Below, in pieces: positions 1,186 to 60,527 of a stretch of DNA of 64,000 nucleotides. The position numbers were made by a program, and so were the translations under genes. The stretch's first letter is position 1, and every line of letters starts with the position of its first letter. Below the pieces are notes generated by a model, which was not told where the DNA came from, ran no database searches, and saw only the letters and a program-made list of their open reading frames with translations. The DNA is taken from NCBI RefSeq assembly GCF_011045215.1, contig NZ_CP049201.1; one strand, given 5' to 3'. Origin of the DNA: Escherichia coli (GTDB taxonomy: Bacteria > Pseudomonadota > Gammaproteobacteria > Enterobacterales > Enterobacteriaceae).

Positions 1186-2070
1186 TCAGATTTTCAATGT
1201 ATCAATGACCATCCGCAGAGCGGGGGAGACGTTGCGATGAGGGTAATAGAGAAACAATCCCTCCAATCGCAGGCTGTAACGCTGCAACACTCTGATAAGC
1301 TTACCGTGTTCTAAATCATCCGCGACCAGTTCAACAGGAACATAGGCCAACCCGAGGCCCAGCCGGGCTGCTTCTGCTTCCATATAGCTGTCGGATAGGG
1401 CCCATTGCCCTTCAGGGCGATGAGTGATTTTTTTATCATCCTGATTGAGTTCCCACTGGTATACGCTGCCGTCGGCAAACTGATAGGCGATACAGGGATG
1501 CGCCTTTAAATCCGCCGGAGTTTGCGGAAAACCATAGCGACGAAAATGTTCCGGAGTCCCCACAATTGCCATCTCCATATCGGGCGTGATGCGTACCGCG
1601 ACCATACCCTGGCCGACTTCAGGCCCCAGGCGGACACCTGCATCGAATCTTTCCTCGATGATATCGACGAACCGGCTCTCATTTATCAGTTCAAGCCGGA
1701 TATCAGGATATCGCTGTTTAAATACCGCCAGCTTTGGCAGCAGGCATTTATCAATCGCATGCTGGCTGGCATTGATGCGCACCGTGCCGGAGGGCGTCTC
1801 TCGATAGTGCGCCAGCGTGGCAAGCCCAAGATCTAACATTTCAAATCCAGATGCCGTCTTCTGGTAGAGCTGCTCGCCTGCTTGCGTCAGAGACAGTTTA
1901 CGCGTGGTGCGCACCAGCAGCTGGACGCCCAGCCTTTCTTCAAGCTCGCGAACAGAACGGCTGACTCCTGACTGCGCAAGACCCAGCCGTTTAGCCGCTG
2001 CGGTAAAACTGCCTTCTTGCACCACCTGCATAAACAGGTACAGCTCGTTGTAGTTCTCCCTTTTCGCCAT
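1186..2070 (-). CDS. LysR-family transcriptional regulator
   Basis: 294 aa; N-terminal HTH (EGSFTAAAKRLGLAQSGVSRSVRELEERLGVQLLVRTTR) and LysR substrate-binding domain. Divergent from the hydrolase at 2236. Sits where K-12 has the yagP pseudogene (from memory). Confidence 0.85.
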   Translation of the reverse strand: MAKRENYNELYLFMQVVQEGSFTAAAKRLGLAQSGVSRSVRELEERLGVQLLVRTTRKLSLTQAGEQLYQKTASGFEMLDLGLATLAHYRETPSGTVRINASQHAIDKCLLPKLAVFKQRYPDIRLELINESRFVDIIEERFDAGVRLGPEVGQGMVAVRITPDMEMAIVGTPEHFRRYGFPQTPADLKAHPCIAYQFADGSVYQWELNQDDKKITHRPEGQWALSDSYMEAEAARLGLGLAYVPVELVADDLEHGKLIRVLQRYSLRLEGLFLYYPHRNVSPALRMVIDTLKI

Positions 2071-2235
2071 TGAAACATCCCCCCTTCATGCCGGCAATCT
2101 TCGCATTAATTTATAACAATATGGTATTAATCTTAGCATTAATCGCCCCCTAATCAGCACTAATTCTGCTCACTATAATGACCCCATCAAAGTAAAGCAC
2201 CGCAGCGTTGTCCGTCGGAAACCTGTATCTCTCTG

Positions 2236-3393
2236 TTGTTTTTTATGGGGATTTTTATGAAAGCCTTCACCCGAACGCTAAAAACCGCGATGCCGGCCAT
2301 GCTGCTTTTCGCATCATTAAGTGGAGTCACGACAATGAGTTATGCTGATTCAACCAATCCTAATGCCCCTGTGTCCATGACAGATAAATGGGATAAAACG
2401 TTCGCCGAGAGCCAGAAAGTCGATCATCGTAAAGTATCGTTCCCGAACCGATATGGCATCACCTTAGTGGGCGATCTTTACCTGCCTAAAGACCGTGGCG
2501 ATCGCAAGCTGGCGGCGATTGCGGTCAGTGGGCCATTTGGCGCGGTGAAAGAGCAATCCAGCGGCTTGTATGCGCAGACGCTGGCGGAACGAGGGTTTGT
2601 TACCCTGGCGTTCGATCCTTCTTACACCGGGGAAAGCGGCGGCTATCCGCGAAACGTCGCCTCACCGGATATCAACACTGAAGATTTCAGCGCGGCGGTG
2701 GATTTCTTAGGGCTGCAAAAAGAGGTAGATCGCAACCGTATCGGGCTGCTCGGTATTTGTGGCTGGGGTGGCATGGCGCTGAACGACGCGGCGATGGATA
2801 CCCGCGTTAAAGCGGTTGCTACCAGCGTGATGTATGACATGAGCCGGGCGATGGGCCATGGTGTGGGGGATGGCGAAGACCGTTATTCTACCGCCGACCG
2901 TCGTGCTGTTCTGCAATATCTGAATGAACAGCGCTGGAAGGATGCGCAGAGCGGAACGTTCGCTCACGGTGGTCATGATATTAATGTCGATAGCAACGGC
3001 AAGGTCAGTGCGGGCGAGCGCATTCTGCCAGAAACGCTGCCGGCAAATCCTCATCCGGTACTGAAAGAGTTCTTTGACTACTATCGCATGCCGCGCGGCT
3101 TCCACGAACGTTCCGTTAACTCTACCGGGGCGTGGACGGCAACGATGCCGCTGTCATTTATGAATATGCCGCTGTTGAGCTACGCCAGTGAAATAACCAT
3201 TCCGACGCTGATTGTGACCGGTGAGAAAGCACATTCACGCTATTTTGCTGAAGATGCTTACAAGGCGGTTGGCAGTAAAGACAAAGAGTTGGTGGTGGTA
3301 CCAGGAGCAAATCACGTGGACCTGTACGATAACGTGGCCGGAAAAATACCTTTCGCGAAGTTCGAACAATTTTTCCAGACCAAACTGAAATAA
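2236..3393 (+). CDS. secreted alpha/beta hydrolase, dienelactone-hydrolase-like with Cys at the nucleophile elbow
   Basis: 385 aa; signal-peptide-like N-terminus (…AMPAMLLFASLSGVTTMSYA|DS); motif LGICGWGG; paralogous to the 22157-23077 product. The true start may be the internal ATG at 2257. Confidence 0.75.
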   Translation: MFFMGIFMKAFTRTLKTAMPAMLLFASLSGVTTMSYADSTNPNAPVSMTDKWDKTFAESQKVDHRKVSFPNRYGITLVGDLYLPKDRGDRKLAAIAVSGPFGAVKEQSSGLYAQTLAERGFVTLAFDPSYTGESGGYPRNVASPDINTEDFSAAVDFLGLQKEVDRNRIGLLGICGWGGMALNDAAMDTRVKAVATSVMYDMSRAMGHGVGDGEDRYSTADRRAVLQYLNEQRWKDAQSGTFAHGGHDINVDSNGKVSAGERILPETLPANPHPVLKEFFDYYRMPRGFHERSVNSTGAWTATMPLSFMNMPLLSYASEITIPTLIVTGEKAHSRYFAEDAYKAVGSKDKELVVVPGANHVDLYDNVAGKIPFAKFEQFFQTKLK

Positions 3394-3468
3394 AACCTCT
3401 CCTGAATTGATGCAAAGCCACCGGTCTATGGCCGGTGGCTTTTATCCTGATCTTTGTGAAATTTCACT

Positions 3469-51779: not shown

Positions 51780-52385
51780 ATGAGTATAAAAAATCTACCT
51801 GCCGACTATTTATTGGCTGCACAACAGGGTGATATCGATAAAGTAAAAACCTGCCTTGCGCTGGGTGTCGATATTAATACCTGCGATCGTCAGGGGAAAA
51901 CGGCAATTACGCTGGCAAGTTTATATCAGCAATATGCTTGCGTTCAGGCATTAATTGATGCCGGAGCGGATATTAATAAACAAGATCATACCTGTTTAAA
52001 TCCTTTTTTAATTAGCTGTCTGAACGATGATTTAACGCTACTACGAATTATTTTACCGGCTAAACCCGATCTTAATTGCGTAACCCGTTTTGGCGGTGTC
52101 GGCCTGACGCCTGCCTGTGAAAAAGGCCATTTAAGTATTGTAAAAGAGCTTTTGGCGCATACGGAAATTAACGTTAACCAGACCAACCATGTAGGCTGGA
52201 CGCCGCTACTGGAAGCGATTGTGCTTAATGATGGTGGTATTAAACAACAGGCGATTGTGCAGTTATTGCTGGAACACGGTGCCAGCCCGCATCTGACCGA
52301 TAAATATGGCAAAACGCCACTGGAACTGGCGCGGGAACGGGGCTTTGACGAGATTGCGCAGTTACTGATTGCCGCAGGCGCATAA
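51780..52385 (+). CDS. yahD: ankyrin-repeat protein
   Basis: 201 aa with several ankyrin repeats (…GKTAITLASLYQQYACVQALIDAGADIN…, …GWTPLLEAIVLN…, …GKTPLELARERG…). Confidence 0.8.
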   Translation: MSIKNLPADYLLAAQQGDIDKVKTCLALGVDINTCDRQGKTAITLASLYQQYACVQALIDAGADINKQDHTCLNPFLISCLNDDLTLLRIILPAKPDLNCVTRFGGVGLTPACEKGHLSIVKELLAHTEINVNQTNHVGWTPLLEAIVLNDGGIKQQAIVQLLLEHGASPHLTDKYGKTPLELARERGFDEIAQLLIAAGA

Positions 52386-52424: not shown

Positions 52425-53288
52425 ATGTGGGCGCTAACTGCGGATGCGGATTTTCTGGCGCAGCGGGGGCAAGGACAGGTTGAACAGGTCTTTGCCAGAG
52501 CGGTAAATATCGCACTCCCGGCTCGCCAGCAGTTGCTGACGCTGCTTTGTGAAGAGTACGACAATGCGCCAAACAGTTGTCGGTTGGCACTCACTCACTT
52601 TGATGATCTGTTCCGGCATGGTGATAAGGTTCAGTTTGACGATCAAGGTATTACGGTTGGTCAACATCTTCATATAGAGATGAGTCGTTGTCGGCGTTGG
52701 CTGTCCCCAACCTTGCAAATGACCGCTGTGAATTTTCACCTTATCGCCTGGCAACAGTGGCACGACATTATTCATCAGCACCTGGGGGAAAATGAAACCC
52801 TGTTTAATTATCGCGGCGATAATCCGTTTTATCAGGCGTTAAATAAAGAATTACATATTAAACGACGGGCAGTTATTCAGACAGTAAACGATAAGCAAAA
52901 TATCGCCTCAGCGGTCGCCAGTATGATGGGGTTAGGGATTGGCCTTACGCCATCAGCCGACGATTATTTAACAGGTCTGGCGCTTATTTTATTTATTCCC
53001 GGGCATCCGGCGGAAAAATACAAAGAGGAATTTTATCTCGGTCTGCAACGCGGCAGAAATAATACCACATTATTAAGTGCTATAACGCTGGAAGCCGCAT
53101 TACAACAACGTTGCCGGGAAAATATTCATCGTTTTATTCACAACATTATTTATGACATCCCTGGGAACGCAACTCAGGCAATAGAAAAAATTAAACATAT
53201 TGGCTCCAGTTCCGGCTGCGACATGCTGTATGGCATGGCCGATGGTTGTGCGCTGAGCCAAACCTACGGAGGGAATTATGTCAGTTAA
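52425..53288 (+). CDS. yahE: DUF2877-family protein (YlbF/AllH-like)
   Basis: 287 aa; 11-nt overlap with yahF. Confidence 0.7.
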   Translation: MWALTADADFLAQRGQGQVEQVFARAVNIALPARQQLLTLLCEEYDNAPNSCRLALTHFDDLFRHGDKVQFDDQGITVGQHLHIEMSRCRRWLSPTLQMTAVNFHLIAWQQWHDIIHQHLGENETLFNYRGDNPFYQALNKELHIKRRAVIQTVNDKQNIASAVASMMGLGIGLTPSADDYLTGLALILFIPGHPAEKYKEEFYLGLQRGRNNTTLLSAITLEAALQQRCRENIHRFIHNIIYDIPGNATQAIEKIKHIGSSSGCDMLYGMADGCALSQTYGGNYVS

Positions 53289-54825
53289 AATAGTCATTAA
53301 ACCGAATACCTATTTTGATTCTGTCTCGCTGATGTCTATCTCCACGCGTGCAAATAAACTCGACGGCGTCGAGCAGGCATTTGTGGCGATGGCGACCGAA
53401 ATGAATAAAGGCGTGCTGAAGAATTTAGGACTGCTGACGCCGGAGCTGGAACAGGCGAAAAACGGCGACCTGATGATTGTCATCAATGGTAAATCGGGTG
53501 CGGACAACGAGCAGTTGCTGGTGGAGATTGAAGAACTGTTCAACACCAAAGCGCAAAGCGGCTCGCACGAGGCGCGTTACGCCACTATTGCCAGCGCCAA
53601 AAAGCATATCCCGGAAAGTAACCTGGCGGTGATTTCGGTCAACGGTCTGTTTGCCGCTCGCGAAGCGCGTCAGGCGCTGCAAAACGATCTCAACGTGATG
53701 CTGTTTTCCGATAACGTCTCGGTTGAAGATGAACTGGCGCTCAAACAGTTGGCCCATGAAAAAGGGCTGCTGATGATGGGGCCGGACTGCGGCACGGCGA
53801 TTATCAACGGCGCGGCGCTCTGCTTTGGTAACGCCGTGCGTCGCGGTAACATCGGTATTGTTGGCGCATCCGGCACCGGCAGCCAGGAGCTGAGCGTCCG
53901 CATTCATGAATTTGGCGGAGGCGTTTCGCAACTCATCGGCACCGGCGGGCGCGACCTGAGCGAGAAAATCGGCGGCCTGATGATGCTCGACGCCATCGGG
54001 ATGCTGGAAAACGATCCGCAAACTGAAATTATCGCGCTGATTTCAAAACCTCCCGCGCCTGCGGTGGCCCGTAAAGTGCTGGAACGCGCCCGCGCCTGCC
54101 GCAAGCCGGTGGTGGTCTGCTTCCTCGGTCGTGGCGAAACGCCAGTGGACGAGCAGGGGCTACAGTTTGCTCGCGGCAGCAAAGAAGCGGCGCTGAAAGC
54201 GGTGATGCTCTCCGGCGTGAAACAGGAACATCTCGATCTGCATACCCTGAACCAGCCGTTGATTGCGGATGTGCGTGCGCGTCTGCAACCCCAGCAGAAA
54301 TACATTCGTGGCCTGTTCTGCGGCGGTACGCTGTGTGACGAAACCATGTTCGCGGTGATGGAAAAACACGGCGATGTCTACAGCAACATCCAGCCCGATC
54401 CTGAATTCCGCCTGCAAGATATCAACCGCAGCATCAAACACACCTTCCTCGACTTTGGCGATGACGACTTCACCAACGGCAAGCCGCACCCGATGATTGA
54501 CCCCACCAACCGTATCAGCCGCTTGATCGAAGAAGCGCGCGATCCAGAAGTGGCGGTGATCGTGATGGATTTTGTGCTCGGATTTGGATCGCACGAAGAT
54601 CCGGTTGGTTCCACCATCGAGGCGATCAAAGAAGCGAAAGCGATCGCCGCTGCCGAAGGACGCGAGTTGATCATTCTCGCCTATGTGCTGGGTACCGATC
54701 TTGATACGCCATCGTTAGAACAACAAAGCCAGATGCTGCTTGATGCCGGAGTGATTCTGGCGAGCAGCAGCACCAATACCGGATTGCTGGCGCGTGAATT
54801 TATCTGCAAAGGGGAGGAAGCCTGA
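53278..54825 (+). CDS. yahF: FdrA-like CoA-ligase-fold protein (AllF paralog)
   Basis: 515 aa, succinyl-CoA-synthetase-alpha-like fold (…IGIVGASGTGSQEL…). Confidence 0.8.
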   Translation: MSVKIVIKPNTYFDSVSLMSISTRANKLDGVEQAFVAMATEMNKGVLKNLGLLTPELEQAKNGDLMIVINGKSGADNEQLLVEIEELFNTKAQSGSHEARYATIASAKKHIPESNLAVISVNGLFAAREARQALQNDLNVMLFSDNVSVEDELALKQLAHEKGLLMMGPDCGTAIINGAALCFGNAVRRGNIGIVGASGTGSQELSVRIHEFGGGVSQLIGTGGRDLSEKIGGLMMLDAIGMLENDPQTEIIALISKPPAPAVARKVLERARACRKPVVVCFLGRGETPVDEQGLQFARGSKEAALKAVMLSGVKQEHLDLHTLNQPLIADVRARLQPQQKYIRGLFCGGTLCDETMFAVMEKHGDVYSNIQPDPEFRLQDINRSIKHTFLDFGDDDFTNGKPHPMIDPTNRISRLIEEARDPEVAVIVMDFVLGFGSHEDPVGSTIEAIKEAKAIAAAEGRELIILAYVLGTDLDTPSLEQQSQMLLDAGVILASSSTNTGLLAREFICKGEEA

Positions 54826-56243
54826 TGAGCCAGTCACTGTTTAGCCAACCATTGAACGTTATTAACGTCGGCATCGCCATGTTTAGCGATGACCTGAAAA
54901 AGCAGCATGTAGAAGTGACTCAACTCGACTGGACGCCGCCGGGGCAGGGCAATATGCAGGTGGTGCAGGCGCTGGATAACATTGCCGATTCGCCGCTGGC
55001 AGACAAAATCGCCGCCGCTAACCAGCAGGCGCTGGAGCGCATTATCCAGTCGCATCCGGTGCTGATTGGTTTTGATCAGGCGATTAACGTGGTGCCGGGC
55101 ATGACGGCGAAAACCATTCTTCACGCCGGGCCGCCGATCACCTGGGAAAAAATGTGCGGCGCGATGAAAGGCGCGGTCACCGGAGCGCTGGTGTTCGAAG
55201 GGCTGGCGAAAGATCTCGATGAGGCGGCTGACCTGGCGGCTTCCGGGGAGATCACCTTCTCGCCGTGTCACGAGCACGACTGCGTGGGATCGATGGCGGG
55301 TGTGACCTCGGCCTCGATGTTTATGCACATCGTAAAAAACAAAACCTACGGCAACATCGCTTATACCAACATGAGCGAGCAGATGGCGAAGATTTTGCGT
55401 ATGGGCGCTAACGACCAGAGCGTGATTGACCGCCTGAACTGGATGCGTGATGTGCAGGGACCAATACTGCGCGACGCGATGAAAATTATCGGCGAAATCG
55501 ATCTGCGCTTAATGCTGGCGCAGGCGCTGCATATGGGCGATGAGTGCCATAACCGCAATAACGCCGGGACGACGCTGCTGATTCAGGCGCTGACGCCGGG
55601 GATTATCCAGGCGGGCTATTCCGTGGAGCAACAGCGCGAAGTGTTTGAGTTTGTCGCCAGCAGCGACTACTTCTCCGGCCCGACGTGGATGGCGATGTGT
55701 AAAGCGGCGATGGATGCGGCGCACGGCATCGAATACAGCACCGTCGTTACCACCATGGCGCGTAACGGCGTCGAATTCGGCCTGCGAGTCAGCGGATTAC
55801 CGGGGCAATGGTTTACCGGCCCGGCGCAGCAGGTTATTGGCCCGATGTTTGCCGGTTATAAGCCGGAAGATTCAGGGCTGGATATTGGCGACAGCGCCAT
55901 CACTGAAACCTACGGTATTGGCGGGTTTGCCATGGCGACCGCGCCTGCAATCGTCGCGCTGGTCGGCGGTACGGTGGAAGAGGCTATCGATTTCTCCCGT
56001 CAGATGCGCGAAATCACTCTCGGTGAAAACCCCAACGTCACCATTCCGCTGCTCGGTTTTATGGGCGTGCCGTCGGCAATCGACATCACCCGCGTGGGTA
56101 GCAGCGGCATTCTGCCGGTGATCAACACCGCCATCGCCCATAAAGATGCGGGCGTCGGCATGATTGGCGCGGGCATTGTGCATCCACCTTTTGCCTGCTT
56201 CGAGAAAGCCATTCTTGGCTGGTGCGAACGTTACGGCGTCTGA
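54825..56243 (+). CDS. yahG: DUF1116-family protein (YlbE/AllG-like)
   Basis: 472 aa; start overlaps the yahF stop (TGATG). Confidence 0.8.
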   Translation: MSQSLFSQPLNVINVGIAMFSDDLKKQHVEVTQLDWTPPGQGNMQVVQALDNIADSPLADKIAAANQQALERIIQSHPVLIGFDQAINVVPGMTAKTILHAGPPITWEKMCGAMKGAVTGALVFEGLAKDLDEAADLAASGEITFSPCHEHDCVGSMAGVTSASMFMHIVKNKTYGNIAYTNMSEQMAKILRMGANDQSVIDRLNWMRDVQGPILRDAMKIIGEIDLRLMLAQALHMGDECHNRNNAGTTLLIQALTPGIIQAGYSVEQQREVFEFVASSDYFSGPTWMAMCKAAMDAAHGIEYSTVVTTMARNGVEFGLRVSGLPGQWFTGPAQQVIGPMFAGYKPEDSGLDIGDSAITETYGIGGFAMATAPAIVALVGGTVEEAIDFSRQMREITLGENPNVTIPLLGFMGVPSAIDITRVGSSGILPVINTAIAHKDAGVGMIGAGIVHPPFACFEKAILGWCERYGV

Positions 56244-56255
56244 CCTACATGTTCA

Positions 56256-56709
56256 TGCCGGATGCGGCGTGAACGCCTTATCCGGCCTACAAGTGGCGCA
56301 AGAATTTGTAGGCCTGATAAGCGTAGCGCATCAGGCATTTGTCACCATTGCCTGATGCGGCGTGAACGCCTTATCCGGCCTACGAGTGGCGCGAGAATTT
56401 GTAGGCCTGATAAGCGTAGCGCATCAGGCATTTGTCACCATTGCCGGATGCGGCGTGAACGCCTTATCCGGCCTACGAGTGGCACGAGAATTTGTAGGCC
56501 TGATAAGCGTAGCGCATCAGGCATTTGTCACCATTGCCGGATGCGGCGTGAACGCCTTATCCGGCCTACGAGTGGCACGAGAATTTGTAGGCCTGATAAG
56601 CGTAGCGCATCAGGCATTTGTCACCATTGCCGGATGCGGCGTGAACGCCTTATCCGGCCTACGAGTGGCACGAGAATTTGTAGGCCTGATAAGCGTAGCG
56701 CATCAGGCA
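56256..56709. repeat. tandem REP (BIME-type) array, about 5 units of about 93 bp
   Basis: Repeating unit TGCCGGATGCGGCGTGAACGCCTTATCCGGCCTAC-spacer-TAGGCCTGATAAGCGTAGCGCATCAGGCA-TTTGTCACCAT, with unit starts at about 56256, 56349, 56442, 56536 and 56628; fills the yahG-yahI gap. Confidence 0.85.
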
Positions 56710-56758
56710 ATTTGGCGTTGGTCACAACCCCATCATCCTCTGTAGCGGACATAACAAA

Positions 56759-57709
56759 ATGAAAGAGCTTGTGGTCGTTGCCATTGGTGGCAACAGCATT
56801 ATCAAAGATAACGCCAGCCAGTCGATTGAGCATCAGGCGGAGGCGGTGAAAGCCGTCGCCGATACGGTGCTGGAAATGCTGGCTTCCGATTACGACATTG
56901 TGCTGACCCACGGTAACGGGCCGCAGGTCGGGCTGGATTTACGCCGTGCGGAGATTGCCCACGAGCGCGAAGGGCTGCCCTTAACGCCGCTGGCGAACTG
57001 TGTGGCAGATACGCAGGGCGGCATCGGCTATCTGATCCAACAGGCGCTGAATAACCGGCTGGCGCGTCACGGCGAGAAGAAAGCCGTCACCGTGGTGACT
57101 CAGGTGGAAGTGGATAAAAACGATCCAGGTTTTGCCCATCCCACCAAGCCCATTGGTGCATTCTTCAGTGAAAGCCAGCGTGACGAATTACAAAAGGCAA
57201 ACCCTGACTGGCGTTTTGTTGAAGATGCCGGACGGGGCTATCGCCGCGTGGTCGCCTCGCCGGAACCGAAACGTATTGTCGAAGCACCCGCCATTAAGGC
57301 GCTGATCCAACAAGGCTTTGTGGTGATTGGCGCGGGCGGCGGCGGAATTCCTGTGGTGCGTACTGACGCGGGAGATTACCAAAGCGTGGACGCGGTTATC
57401 GACAAAGATCTCTCTACCGCGCTACTGGCTCGCGAAATTCACGCCGACATTCTGGTGATCACCACTGGCGTGGAAAAAGTGTGTATTCATTTTGGTAAAC
57501 CGCAGCAACAGGCGCTCGATCGGGTGGATATTGCCACCATGACCCGCTATATGCAGGAAGGGCATTTCCCGCCCGGCAGCATGTTGCCAAAAATCATCGC
57601 CAGCCTGACGTTCCTGGAACAGGGCGGCAAAGAAGTGATTATCACCACGCCGGAATGCCTGCCTGCGGCGCTGCGCGGTGAAACGGGCACCCATATTATT
57701 AAAACGTAA
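56759..57709 (+). CDS. yahI: carbamate kinase-like protein
   Basis: 316 aa amino-acid-kinase fold (MKELVVVAIGGNSI…THGNGPQVG…). Confidence 0.85.
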   Translation: MKELVVVAIGGNSIIKDNASQSIEHQAEAVKAVADTVLEMLASDYDIVLTHGNGPQVGLDLRRAEIAHEREGLPLTPLANCVADTQGGIGYLIQQALNNRLARHGEKKAVTVVTQVEVDKNDPGFAHPTKPIGAFFSESQRDELQKANPDWRFVEDAGRGYRRVVASPEPKRIVEAPAIKALIQQGFVVIGAGGGGIPVVRTDAGDYQSVDAVIDKDLSTALLAREIHADILVITTGVEKVCIHFGKPQQQALDRVDIATMTRYMQEGHFPPGSMLPKIIASLTFLEQGGKEVIITTPECLPAALRGETGTHIIKT

Positions 57710-57718
57710 GGACGTAAG

Positions 57719-59101
57719 ATGAAAGAAAGCAATAGCCGCCGTGAATTTCTGAGCCAGAGCGGTAAGATGGTCACCGCCGCCGCGCTGTTTGGTACCTCTG
57801 TGCCGCTCGCCCATGCGGCGGTAGCTGGCACCCTAAACTGCGAAGCGAACAACACCATGAAAATCACTGACCCGCATTACTATCTCGACAACGTGCTGCT
57901 GGAAACTGGATTTGACTACGAAAATGGCGTGGCGGTGCAGACCCGCACGGCGCGCCAGACCGTGGAGATTCAGGACGGCAAAATTGTCGCGCTGCGCGAG
58001 AACAAGCAGCATCCGGACGCCACGCTGCCGCACTATGACGCTGGCGATAAGCTGATGCTGCCCACCACCCGCGACATGCATATTCATCTCGACAAAACCT
58101 TCTACGGCGGGCCGTGGCGCTCGCTCAATCGTCCGGCAGGCACCACTATCCAGGACATGATCAAACTCGAGCAGAAAATGCTGCCGGAGTTACAACCGTA
58201 TACGCAGGAGCGGGCGGAAAAACTGATCGATCTATTGCAGTCGAAAGGCACCACCATTGCCCGCAGCCACTGCAATATCGAACCGGTTTCCGGTCTGAAA
58301 AATCTGCAAAATTTGCAGGCGGTGCTGGCGCGACGTCAGGCGGGCTTCGAGTGTGAAATCGTCGCCTTCCCGCAGCACGGTTTGCTGCTGTCGAAATCGG
58401 AACCCTTAATGCGCGAAGCGATGCAGGCGGGTGCGCATTACGTCGGCGGGCTGGACCCGACCAGTGTCGATGGCGCGATGGAAAAATCCCTCGACACCAT
58501 GTTCCAGATTGCGCTGGACTACGACAAAGGCGTCGATATTCACCTGCACGAAACCACTCCGTCGGGCGTGGCAGCCATCAATTATATGGTTGAAACGGTA
58601 GAGAAAACGCCTCAACTGAAAGGTAAGCTGACCATCAGCCACGCCTTTGCGCTGGCTACGCTCAACGAGCAACAGGTAGATGAACTGGCGCATCGCATGG
58701 CGGCGCAGCAAATTTCTATCGCCTCGACGGTGCCGATTGGCACGCTGCATATGCCGCTCAAACAGTTGCACGACAAAGGCGTAAAAGTGATGACTGGCAC
58801 TGACAGCGTTATCGACCACTGGTCGCCTTATGGTCTGGGCGACATGCTGGAAAAAGCCAATCTCTACGCGCAGCTCTATATTCGTCCTAACGAACAGAAC
58901 CTCTCCCGTTCGCTGTTTTTAGCCACTGGCGATGTATTGCCGCTGAATGAAAAAGGCGAGCGTGTATGGCCAAAAGCGCAGGATGACGCCAGCTTTGTGC
59001 TGGTGGACGCCTCCTGTTCCGCCGAGGCGGTGGCGCGTATCTCGCCGAGAACCGCAACGTTCCATAAAGGGCAACTGGTGTGGGGGAGTGTGGCAGGTTG
59101 A
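57719..59101 (+). CDS. yahJ: Tat-exported amidohydrolase-superfamily deaminase-like protein
   Basis: 460 aa; twin-arginine motif SRREFLSQSGKMVTAAALFGTSVPLAHA; metal-dependent hydrolase motifs (HIHLDK…, HLHE…). Confidence 0.8.
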   Translation: MKESNSRREFLSQSGKMVTAAALFGTSVPLAHAAVAGTLNCEANNTMKITDPHYYLDNVLLETGFDYENGVAVQTRTARQTVEIQDGKIVALRENKQHPDATLPHYDAGDKLMLPTTRDMHIHLDKTFYGGPWRSLNRPAGTTIQDMIKLEQKMLPELQPYTQERAEKLIDLLQSKGTTIARSHCNIEPVSGLKNLQNLQAVLARRQAGFECEIVAFPQHGLLLSKSEPLMREAMQAGAHYVGGLDPTSVDGAMEKSLDTMFQIALDYDKGVDIHLHETTPSGVAAINYMVETVEKTPQLKGKLTISHAFALATLNEQQVDELAHRMAAQQISIASTVPIGTLHMPLKQLHDKGVKVMTGTDSVIDHWSPYGLGDMLEKANLYAQLYIRPNEQNLSRSLFLATGDVLPLNEKGERVWPKAQDDASFVLVDASCSAEAVARISPRTATFHKGQLVWGSVAG

Positions 59102-59477: not shown

Positions 59478-60527
59478 ATGAAGATCAAAGCTGTTGGTGC
59501 ATATTCCGCTAAACAACCACTTGAACCGATGGATATCACCCGGCGTGAACCGGGACCGAATGATGTCAAAATCGAAATCGCTTACTGTGGCGTCTGCCAT
59601 TCCGATCTCCACCAGGTCCGTTCCGAGTGGGCGGGGACGGTTTATCCCTGCGTGCCGGGTCATGAAATTGTGGGGCGTGTGGTAGCCGTTGGTGATCAGG
59701 TAAAAAAATATGCGCCGGGCGATCTGGTCGGTGTCGGCTGCATTGTCGACAGTTGTAAACATTGCGAAGAGTGTGAAGACGGGCTGGAAAACTACTGTGA
59801 TCACATGACCGGCACCTATAACTCGCCGACGCCGGACGAACCGGGCCATACTCTGGGCGGCTACTCACAACAGATCGTCGTTCATGAGCGATATGTTCTG
59901 CGTATTCGTCACCCGCAAGAGCAGCTGGCGGCGGTGGCTCCTTTGTTGTGTGCAGGGATCACCACGTATTCGCCGCTACGTCACTGGCAGGCCGGACCGG
60001 GTAAAAAAGTGGGCGTGGTCGGCATCGGCGGTCTGGGACATATGGGGATCAAGCTGGCCCACGCGATGGGGGCGCATGTGGTGGCATTTACCACTTCTGA
60101 GTCAAAACGCGAAGCGGCAAAAGCCCTGGGGGCCGATGAAGTTGTTAACTCACGCAATGCCGATGAGATGGCGGCTCATGTGAAGAGTTTCGATTTCATT
60201 TTGAATACAGTAGCTGCGCCACATAATCTCGACGATTTTACCACCTTGCTGAAGCGTGATGGCACCATGACGCTGGTTGGTGCGCCTGCGACACCGCATA
60301 AATCGCCGGAAGTTTTCAACCTGATCATGAAACGCCGTGCGATAGCCGGTTCTATGATTGGCGGCATTCCAGAAACTCAGGAGATGCTCGATTTTTGCGC
60401 CGAACATGGCATCGTGGCTGATATAGAGATGATTCGGGCCGATCAAATTAATGAAGCCTATGAGCGAATGCTGCGTGGTGATGTGAAATATCGTTTTGTT
60501 ATCGATAATCGCACACTAACAGACTGA
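59478..60527 (+). CDS. yahK: NADPH-dependent zinc alcohol dehydrogenase-type aldehyde reductase
   Basis: 349 aa; catalytic and structural zinc ligands (GVCHSDLH, CKHCEECEDGLENYC); nucleotide-binding motif GVVGIGGLGHMG. Confidence 0.85.
   Translation: MKIKAVGAYSAKQPLEPMDITRREPGPNDVKIEIAYCGVCHSDLHQVRSEWAGTVYPCVPGHEIVGRVVAVGDQVKKYAPGDLVGVGCIVDSCKHCEECEDGLENYCDHMTGTYNSPTPDEPGHTLGGYSQQIVVHERYVLRIRHPQEQLAAVAPLLCAGITTYSPLRHWQAGPGKKVGVVGIGGLGHMGIKLAHAMGAHVVAFTTSESKREAAKALGADEVVNSRNADEMAAHVKSFDFILNTVAAPHNLDDFTTLLKRDGTMTLVGAPATPHKSPEVFNLIMKRRAIAGSMIGGIPETQEMLDFCAEHGIVADIEMIRADQINEAYERMLRGDVKYRFVIDNRTLTD

Follow-up and report, generated by a model that had tools for sequence, protein, structure and literature searches.

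The repeat that separates yahG from yahI in the 64,000-nucleotide stretch of Escherichia coli DNA analysed here (referred to as the window) is almost certainly a BIME-2, in which Y palindromes of the E. coli REP family alternate with inverted Z2 palindromes. The locus is already known, as a BIME-2, as REP23 and as the phantom gene yahH (b0322), and the window carries a five-unit variant of it. The best overall explanation, to which we give a probability of about 0.9, is that of a BIME-2 whose hairpins protect the yahEFG mRNA and partly attenuate yahIJ, and whose copy number changes by recombination. Since strains carry from 0 to 5 units, the functional part of this explanation (stabiliser and attenuator), which is drawn by analogy, stands at roughly even odds against a largely neutral repeat.

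Anatomy, classification and earlier descriptions of the array

Tandem Repeats Finder (TRF) detected one tandem array in the whole 64-kb window, a 93-bp unit present in 4.9 copies at 56256–56714 with 98% matches, no indels and a score of 874, and a repeat search placed the unit copies in exact register with a spacing of 93 nt. The first-pass annotation had described about five near-identical 93-bp units, each an inverted pair of REP palindromes, lying exactly between yahG and yahI, and this description holds in both respects. Every unit is made of a Y REP (+), a 17-nt linker, a Z2 REP (−) and a 13-nt linker, giving ten REPs in total with Y always on the + strand and Z2 always on the − strand. 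The corresponding sequences are TGCCGGATGCGGCGTGAACGCCTTATCCGGCCTAC for the Y-type REP (+ strand), GAGTGGCACGAGAATTT for an example of the 17-nt linker, GTAGGCCTGATAAGCGTAGCGCATCAGGC for the inverted Z2-type REP and ATTTGTCACCATT for the 13-nt linker. The array was searched with a 34-nt Y consensus and a 29-nt Z2 consensus, which we take to represent these E. coli REP types. Five Y matches were obtained on the + strand with 0–1 mismatch and five Z2 matches on the − strand with 0 mismatches, for an expectation of 0.00 each in shuffled sequences; at up to 3 mismatches, no Y or Z2 REP was found elsewhere within the 64-kb window. The CCTAC and GTAGG tails of the Y and Z2 REPs face one another across the 17-nt linker. 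Units 3–5 are identical and units 1 and 2 are each 2–3 substitutions away, so that the 93-nt periodicity is perfect over 318 bp (56392–56709). All features are listed in Table 1.

Table 1. Features of the yah region in the window (positions are those of the whole stretch)
Feature	Position	Strand	Evidence or remark
yahD, ankyrin-repeat protein	51780–52385		
yahE	52425–53288		Pfam AllH
yahF	53278–54825		FdrA family (FdrA/AllF-like)
yahG	54825–56243		Pfam AllG, 5e-89
yahG stop TGA, followed by C	56241–56243	+	
BIME-2 array, five 93-bp units	56256–56709	.	TRF, unit listing, RNA fold
Y-type REP 1 (GCCGGATGCGGCGTGAACGCCTTATCCGGCCTAC)	56257–56290	+	consensus match; hairpin dG −21.3 kcal/mol
Z2-type REP 1 (GCCTGATGCGCTACGCTTATCAGGCCTAC on the − strand)	56308–56336	−	consensus match; hairpin dG −12.9 kcal/mol
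Y-type REP 2, G>T change (GCCTGATG)	56350–56383	+	consensus match
Z2-type REP 2	56401–56429	−	consensus match
Y-type REP 3	56443–56476	+	consensus match
Z2-type REP 3	56494–56522	−	consensus match
Y-type REP 4	56536–56569	+	consensus match
Z2-type REP 4	56587–56615	−	consensus match
Y-type REP 5	56629–56662	+	consensus match
Z2-type REP 5, final REP of the array	56680–56708	−	consensus match
166-aa ORF, unit phase 0, in frame with yahG	56262–56762	+	
127-aa ORF, unit phase 1, remnant of the K-12 yahH frame	56362–56745	+	
Rfam RF02564 (naRNA4) match	56404–56473	−	above gathering score
yahI leader, unique, 49 nt	56710–56758	+	
yahI, carbamate kinase family, first gene 3' of the array	56759–57709	+	NCBIfam PRK12352, 3e-196
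yahJ, amidohydrolase	57719–59101		
yahK	59478–60527		

The order of the yah genes is the same as in K-12. The array occupies the 515-bp spacer that runs from the yahG TGA (56241–56243) to the yahI ATG (56759–56761), and a gap of 13 nt (56244–56256) separates the yahG stop codon from the first REP stem. The neighbours had been named as transcarbamylase-like yahEFG, the carbamate kinase YahI and the amidohydrolase YahJ, and the Pfam and NCBIfam matches together with the K-12 annotation agree with these names. AllH and AllG, the Pfam families matched by YahE and YahG, are oxamate carbamoyltransferase subunit families, and "transcarbamylase-like" is a fair term for yahEFG because the experimentally defined oxamic transcarbamylase is AllFGH (PMC11326118). 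The yah genes themselves are uncharacterised y-genes (PMC11551758).

A BIME-2 has been defined as Y and Z2 REPs in alternating orientation, present in tandem copies of strain-variable number at an extragenic site (PMC3333891). The array fits this definition because its REPs are Y and Z2, alternate with their CTAC/GTAG tails and are repeated in tandem with short linkers, and because it is wholly extragenic (yahG stop at 56243, yahI ATG at 56759); its copy number also varies between strains. A BIME-1/RIP element with an IHF site was ruled out, since the IHF core motif WATCAANNNNTTR is absent from both strands of the yahG–yahI spacer and the REPs are Z2, not Z1. A CRISPR-like array was also ruled out: what would be its spacers are linkers of constant sequence, and successive repeats point in opposite directions.

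Earlier descriptions of the locus agree with this classification. The 2024 survey lists "yahH (filled with REP23 sites)" (PMC11551758), and Neuhaus et al. (2016) devoted two sections to the version found in EHEC O157:H7, which has five repeat blocks, was recognised there as a BIME and was placed in a putative yahDEFGIJ operon (PMC4765031). The K-12 REP23/yahH element shares with the window array its locus, its Y and Z2 composition, the alternation, the short linkers and the 93-bp unit. In K-12 MG1655, where the ORF yahH is annotated within the array, the spacer is 421 bp long and its four units align unit for unit with the window, which has five; the linker variants differ, units 3–5 are identical in the window, and a G>T change in Y REP 2 of the window interrupts the yahH frame. 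X002 of EHEC EDL933 is yahH, with five blocks between yahG and yahI as in the window. The O157:H7 spacer measures 514 bp against 515 bp here, with flanks about 97% identical, and lacks one base in block 4, which causes a frameshift, whereas the window array has no indel.

Unit number in E. coli and the spacer in related species

In order to count units in other strains, the check that the first-pass annotation had proposed for what it called a copy-number hot spot, 5,426 complete E. coli genomes were searched with a query made of 400 nt of the yahG 3' end and 400 nt of the yahI 5' end. Sixty records spread evenly down the ranking were taken, yielding 57 usable chromosomal rows, which are a sample and not a census. 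Between 0 and 5 units were found: no REP in 4 records (spacer of about 95 bp), one unit in 27 (142–153 bp), two in 2 (235–246 bp), three in 4 (328–329 bp), four in 15 (421–432 bp) and five in 5 (514–515 bp). One unit is thus the commonest state, in about half of the sampled chromosomes, and the five of the window are the top of the observed range. An earlier sample, obtained with a query that included the array, gave the same spacer size classes, and no array of more than five units was seen in either of these two spread samples of E. coli genomes. The proposal of a copy-number hot spot is well borne out by this range and by two BL21 assemblies that are one unit apart.

Eleven alleles were read base by base, giving 33 units for comparison. 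The REP bodies are almost invariant over these units and the variable positions fall in the two linkers; the 17-nt linker carries a 1-nt deletion in 7 of the 33. The linker variants are shuffled between units and between strains, which fits with repeated unequal exchange. The window allele matches none of the eleven exactly, and its flanks are about 97–98% identical to those of the best E. coli genomes. In E. coli FDAARGOS_943, which combines the closest flanks with five units, the annotation treats yahG as a pseudogene interrupted by an internal stop (1982–3400 of the compared segment). The two BL21 assemblies, BL21(DE3) NZ_CP081489 and BL21 TaKaRa NZ_CP010816, have identical flanks and carry three and four units, respectively, the difference being exactly the first 93-bp unit. 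Either the unit number truly changed in the laboratory or one assembly collapsed, which supports the caution initially expressed about the assembly of this array.

About 7% of the sampled E. coli carry a REP-free yahG–yahI spacer of 95 bp. In one such strain, E. coli 31B22CPO057 (NZ_CM188076; 601–695 of the segment), this spacer contains the hairpin CCTTCTCCC-TTTT-GGGGAGAAGG, which resembles the GGGAGAGGG-type palindromes found at the same site in Kluyvera and Klebsiella. This REP-free hairpin allele may be the ancestral state.

A cross-species scan with YahG, limited to one genome per species, gave 80 loci. Most of them were members of the paralogous allFGH cluster, in which another gene separates the allG homologue from the carbamate kinase gene, and were left out. 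True yahG–yahI neighbours were found in E. whittamii and E. albertii, both with Y/Z2 BIMEs. In E. albertii NBRC 107761 the spacer is 315 bp long, and within it the final ~50 nt of yahG, stop codon TGA included, recur ahead of a further BIME unit; this larger duplication carried a piece of the gene along with the repeat. Y, Z1 and Z2 REPs follow yahG in Pseudocitrobacter faecalis, and in strain DSM 27453 the YahG and YahI proteins are 98–99% identical to those of the window. The presence of E. coli-type REPs next to near-identical YahG and YahI suggests either horizontal transfer or a shared REP family.

yahG and yahI are also neighbours in Kluyvera, Citrobacter amalonaticus, Klebsiella, Raoultella and an Enterobacter isolate. 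The spacers of this group are 79–195 nt long and each opens with its own distinct GC-rich palindrome. They end in a conserved stretch of about 35–40 nt before the yahI ATG. This yahI-proximal stretch (window 56722–56758; ATAACCCCATCAYCCTCTGTAGCGGA...) is recognisable from Escherichia to Raoultella, is C/A-rich and relatively G-poor, and could be a rut-like site or a translation-initiation element. Together, we infer from these comparisons that the locus has long had a stem-loop downstream of yahG and that in Escherichia this place is occupied by the BIME-2, which was amplified later.

Reading frames and competing explanations

Because 93 nt equals 31 codons, two of the three + strand frames stay open through the array. 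A repetitive pseudo-protein had been noted as the product of the ORF caller reading through it, and such an ORF is indeed present and is the long-known yahH. In the window, the G>T change in Y REP 2 creates a TGA at 56354–56356 that breaks the K-12 yahH frame. The TGA of the 166-aa ORF overlaps the yahI ATG (ATGA); we infer that this ORF is in the same unit phase as EHEC X002, and it is probably not a conserved gene. As the array has no indel, in contrast to that of O157:H7, the phase-0 frame is open past the yahG TGA-C through all 172 spacer codons (56244–56762). A full-length open frame of this kind was present in only two of the eleven alleles read and we treat it as a chance occurrence. 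UGA followed by C is a weak termination context in E. coli. More speculatively, leaky read-through of the yahG UGA-C could bring ribosomes to the yahI ATGA, relieve Rho attenuation and couple yahI to yahG.

Could a genuine repetitive protein, YahH/X002, be translated from the array as part of the yah operon mRNA? The two open + strand frames, the label "protein YahH" given in K-12 and by PGAP, the ribosome footprints reported for the 465-nt EHEC ORF (RPKM 56, coverage 0.61; PMC4765031) and the phase-0 frame that extends in the window from the yahG stop to the TGA overlapping the yahI ATG would all agree with it, but we consider it very improbable. The annotated start, frame and length vary between records; the K-12 frame meets the in-frame TGA at 56354–56356 in the window and 1-nt linker indels break the frame in 7 of the 33 units; the length left open through the array varies between 52 and 172 codons, and no such stretch exists in 0- and 1-unit strains, which make up about half of the sample. 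Conservation tracks the hairpins and not codon positions, with variation confined to the linkers, and footprints would be ambiguous where the reads come from a hairpin repeat that resists nuclease and is present in several copies. The array ORFs reached the cut-off of no Pfam or NCBIfam family, and the table part of PMC4765031 gives no count of mass-spectrometry peptides for X002. The array thus showed neither a conserved frame and length, nor codon-patterned substitutions, nor a curated family, and a conserved protein-coding gene is unlikely because no reading frame is conserved. The region is better labelled as a REP/BIME-2 repeat region (REP23) than as a protein gene. The array ORFs did give weak, sub-threshold matches to unrelated models, namely NCBIfam PRK06090 (DNA polymerase III delta', E 4e-7) and Pfam DUF5477, Integrase_p58_C and AcetylCoA_hyd_C; some seed sequences of these four families probably run into REP elements. 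The most improbable of the alternatives, in our view, is that the array is a source of naRNA4-like RNAs that would act with HU to connect cruciform REP DNA and so compact the chromosome. In addition to the match listed in Table 1, RF02564 matched above its gathering score at 56311–56380, 56497–56566 and 56590–56659, all on the − strand; the four matches score 70.9–78 bits for a gathering threshold of 59.5, and REP325, the array on which naRNA4 was defined (PMC4550694), is very similar. However, these matches lie on the strand antisense to yah, where the promoter search gave nothing significant, while the + (operon-sense) strand scores 49.4–53.9 bits, below the threshold. Moreover, the second hairpin is a Z2, 7 nt shorter than the Z1 of the model, and a 2026 study that includes the original laboratory observed no measurable nucleoid compaction or REP–REP contacts for REP325/naRNA4 (bioRxiv 10.64898/2026.03.23.713779).

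Two further explanations concern the unit number and its meaning. The five units of the window could be an artefact of assembly, with the repeat expanded or collapsed. A miscount of the exact number is possible because the perfectly periodic tract of 318 bp is longer than a short read, and the two BL21 assemblies differ by exactly one unit between identical flanks; only reads long enough to cover about 600 bp give a dependable unit count. Still, several closed genomes from different lineages (O157:H7, FDAARGOS_943 and others) also carry five units, and at least three unit types were resolved in the window since units 1 and 2 carry their own distinguishing substitutions, which makes an artefact quite unlikely; the element is real whatever the exact count. 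A much more serious competitor, though we hold it for somewhat less probable than not, is a neutral or selfish repeat under no selected function, that is, REPs sitting in a permissive spacer with incidental effects on expression. That strains do well with anything from 0 to 5 units speaks against strong selection on copy number and fits with such a repeat, as do the prevalence of the one-unit state, the existence of the REP-free allele of 31B22CPO057, the uncharacterised status of the yah genes and the shuffling of linker variants between units and strains, which is expected from frequent unequal exchange. On the other hand, a GC-rich stem-loop lies directly after yahG in every genus with yahG–yahI neighbours, with unrelated sequences, suggesting that the structure is tolerated or favoured, and variation falls in the linkers, with hardly any in the REP bodies. 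Neutrality is in any case compatible with the BIME-2 identity and differs from the preferred reading on selection only. At the other extreme, the unit number might act as a heritable, stepwise dial on the stoichiometry of YahEFG (AllFGH-like) to YahI/YahJ, with lineages fixed at 0 to 5 units; we regard this as unlikely.

Proposed role and comparison with REP325 and other intra-operon REPs

The preferred reading, a BIME-2 that stabilises the upstream mRNA and partly attenuates the downstream genes, was confronted with the predicted RNA structure and the transcription signals of the region. The array RNA is predicted to fold at −258.5 kcal/mol against −190 for shuffled sequences (z = −10.1). A single Y hairpin has −21.3 and a single Z2 hairpin −12.9 kcal/mol; in an alternative fold, adjacent REPs would pair together at about −42 kcal/mol. 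No terminator-like site was found on the + strand between 55800 and 57200, where the REP stems run into a linker and not into a T run. An intrinsic (Rho-independent) terminator was therefore ruled out, for lack of a U-tract. Likewise, the search for sigma-70-like promoters gave none on the + strand from the array to yahI, which makes read-through from upstream the most likely way for transcription to reach yahI; an internal promoter for yahI was rejected on this basis, a single − strand site being what is expected by chance. That site, TCGACT-16-GATAAT (9/12), lies at 56798–56825 inside the start of yahI and points into the array, on the strand with the naRNA4 matches.

In the mechanism that we propose, up to ten hairpins in the yah transcript would block 3'-to-5' exonucleases and so stabilise the yahEFG segment, while the untranslated structured stretch would cause partial, partly Rho-dependent attenuation, keeping yahIJ below yahEFG as in REP325. 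If the EHEC footprints reflected real translation, the Rho-dependent attenuation would be relieved. Genome-wide, the ratio of upstream to downstream expression is raised in REP-containing tandem gene pairs, REP effects depend on context and terminal REPs do not confer longer mRNA half-lives (bioRxiv 10.64898/2026.03.23.713779). With its first stem starting 13 nt beyond the yahG stop, the array may also slow the termination of YahG translation; ribosomes stall at stop codons that have a REP within 15 nt (cited in PMC12306157). In alleles with a 22-nt left flank the first stem lies 23 nt from the yahG stop, and such a stop-proximity effect is thus not conserved at the locus.

In the DNA itself, gyrase probably binds and cleaves at the Y REPs. 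BIME-2 elements are enriched for gyrase cleavage, with Y favoured over Z2 (PMC6379681); yahG, yahH and yahI do not appear in two supplements of that paper. Copy number would shift by unequal recombination or slippage between the near-identical units, possibly assisted by TnpA-REP, which cleaves and recombines BIMEs in vitro (PMC3333891) and offers a possible route to amplification. In a REPtron, REPs flank a tnpA-REP/RAYT gene of the Y1-transposase type; the genes next to the present array are yahG and yahI.

Beyond its correct annotation the array is of little importance, being real but ordinary. It does flag yahEFG and yahIJ as the probably differentially expressed halves of one catabolic carbamoyl-transfer gene set, and the presence of 0 to 5 units in otherwise similar operons provides a convenient natural allelic series for testing the recently proposed role of REP arrays as attenuator and stabiliser.

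The experimentally characterised model is REP325 (yjdM–yjdN), in which, as in the yah array, REP pairs are repeated in tandem between two genes that share an operon and a direction. REP325 acts as a partly Rho-dependent attenuator that lowers downstream transcription about 8–10-fold; the mRNA upstream of it is stabilised as well, and its own RNA forms a ladder of species that end in hairpins (bioRxiv 10.64898/2026.03.23.713779). The roles of partial terminator and mRNA stabiliser that the first-pass annotation had suggested for such arrays match these experiments on REP325 and, by analogy, are the most likely ones for the yah array. The two arrays are similar in geometry: REP325 has a 100-nt period repeated 5.8 times and 12 hairpins, against a 93-nt period and 10 hairpins for yah, with linkers of roughly 12–13 nt and 17 nt in the former and of 13 and 17 nt in the latter. 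They differ in that REP325 pairs Y with Z1 (an "atypical" BIME) whereas the yah array pairs Y with Z2. The orientation of the pair relative to transcription is also opposite, so that the yah sense transcript is the complement of a naRNA4-like RNA. The classic intra-operon REP stabilisers are those of malE-malF and hisJ-hisQ. There too, REP hairpins lie just after a stop codon within a polycistronic unit and the upstream gene is more highly expressed; the placement is like that of the yah array, which has 10 REPs against 2–3 in each of these two cases.
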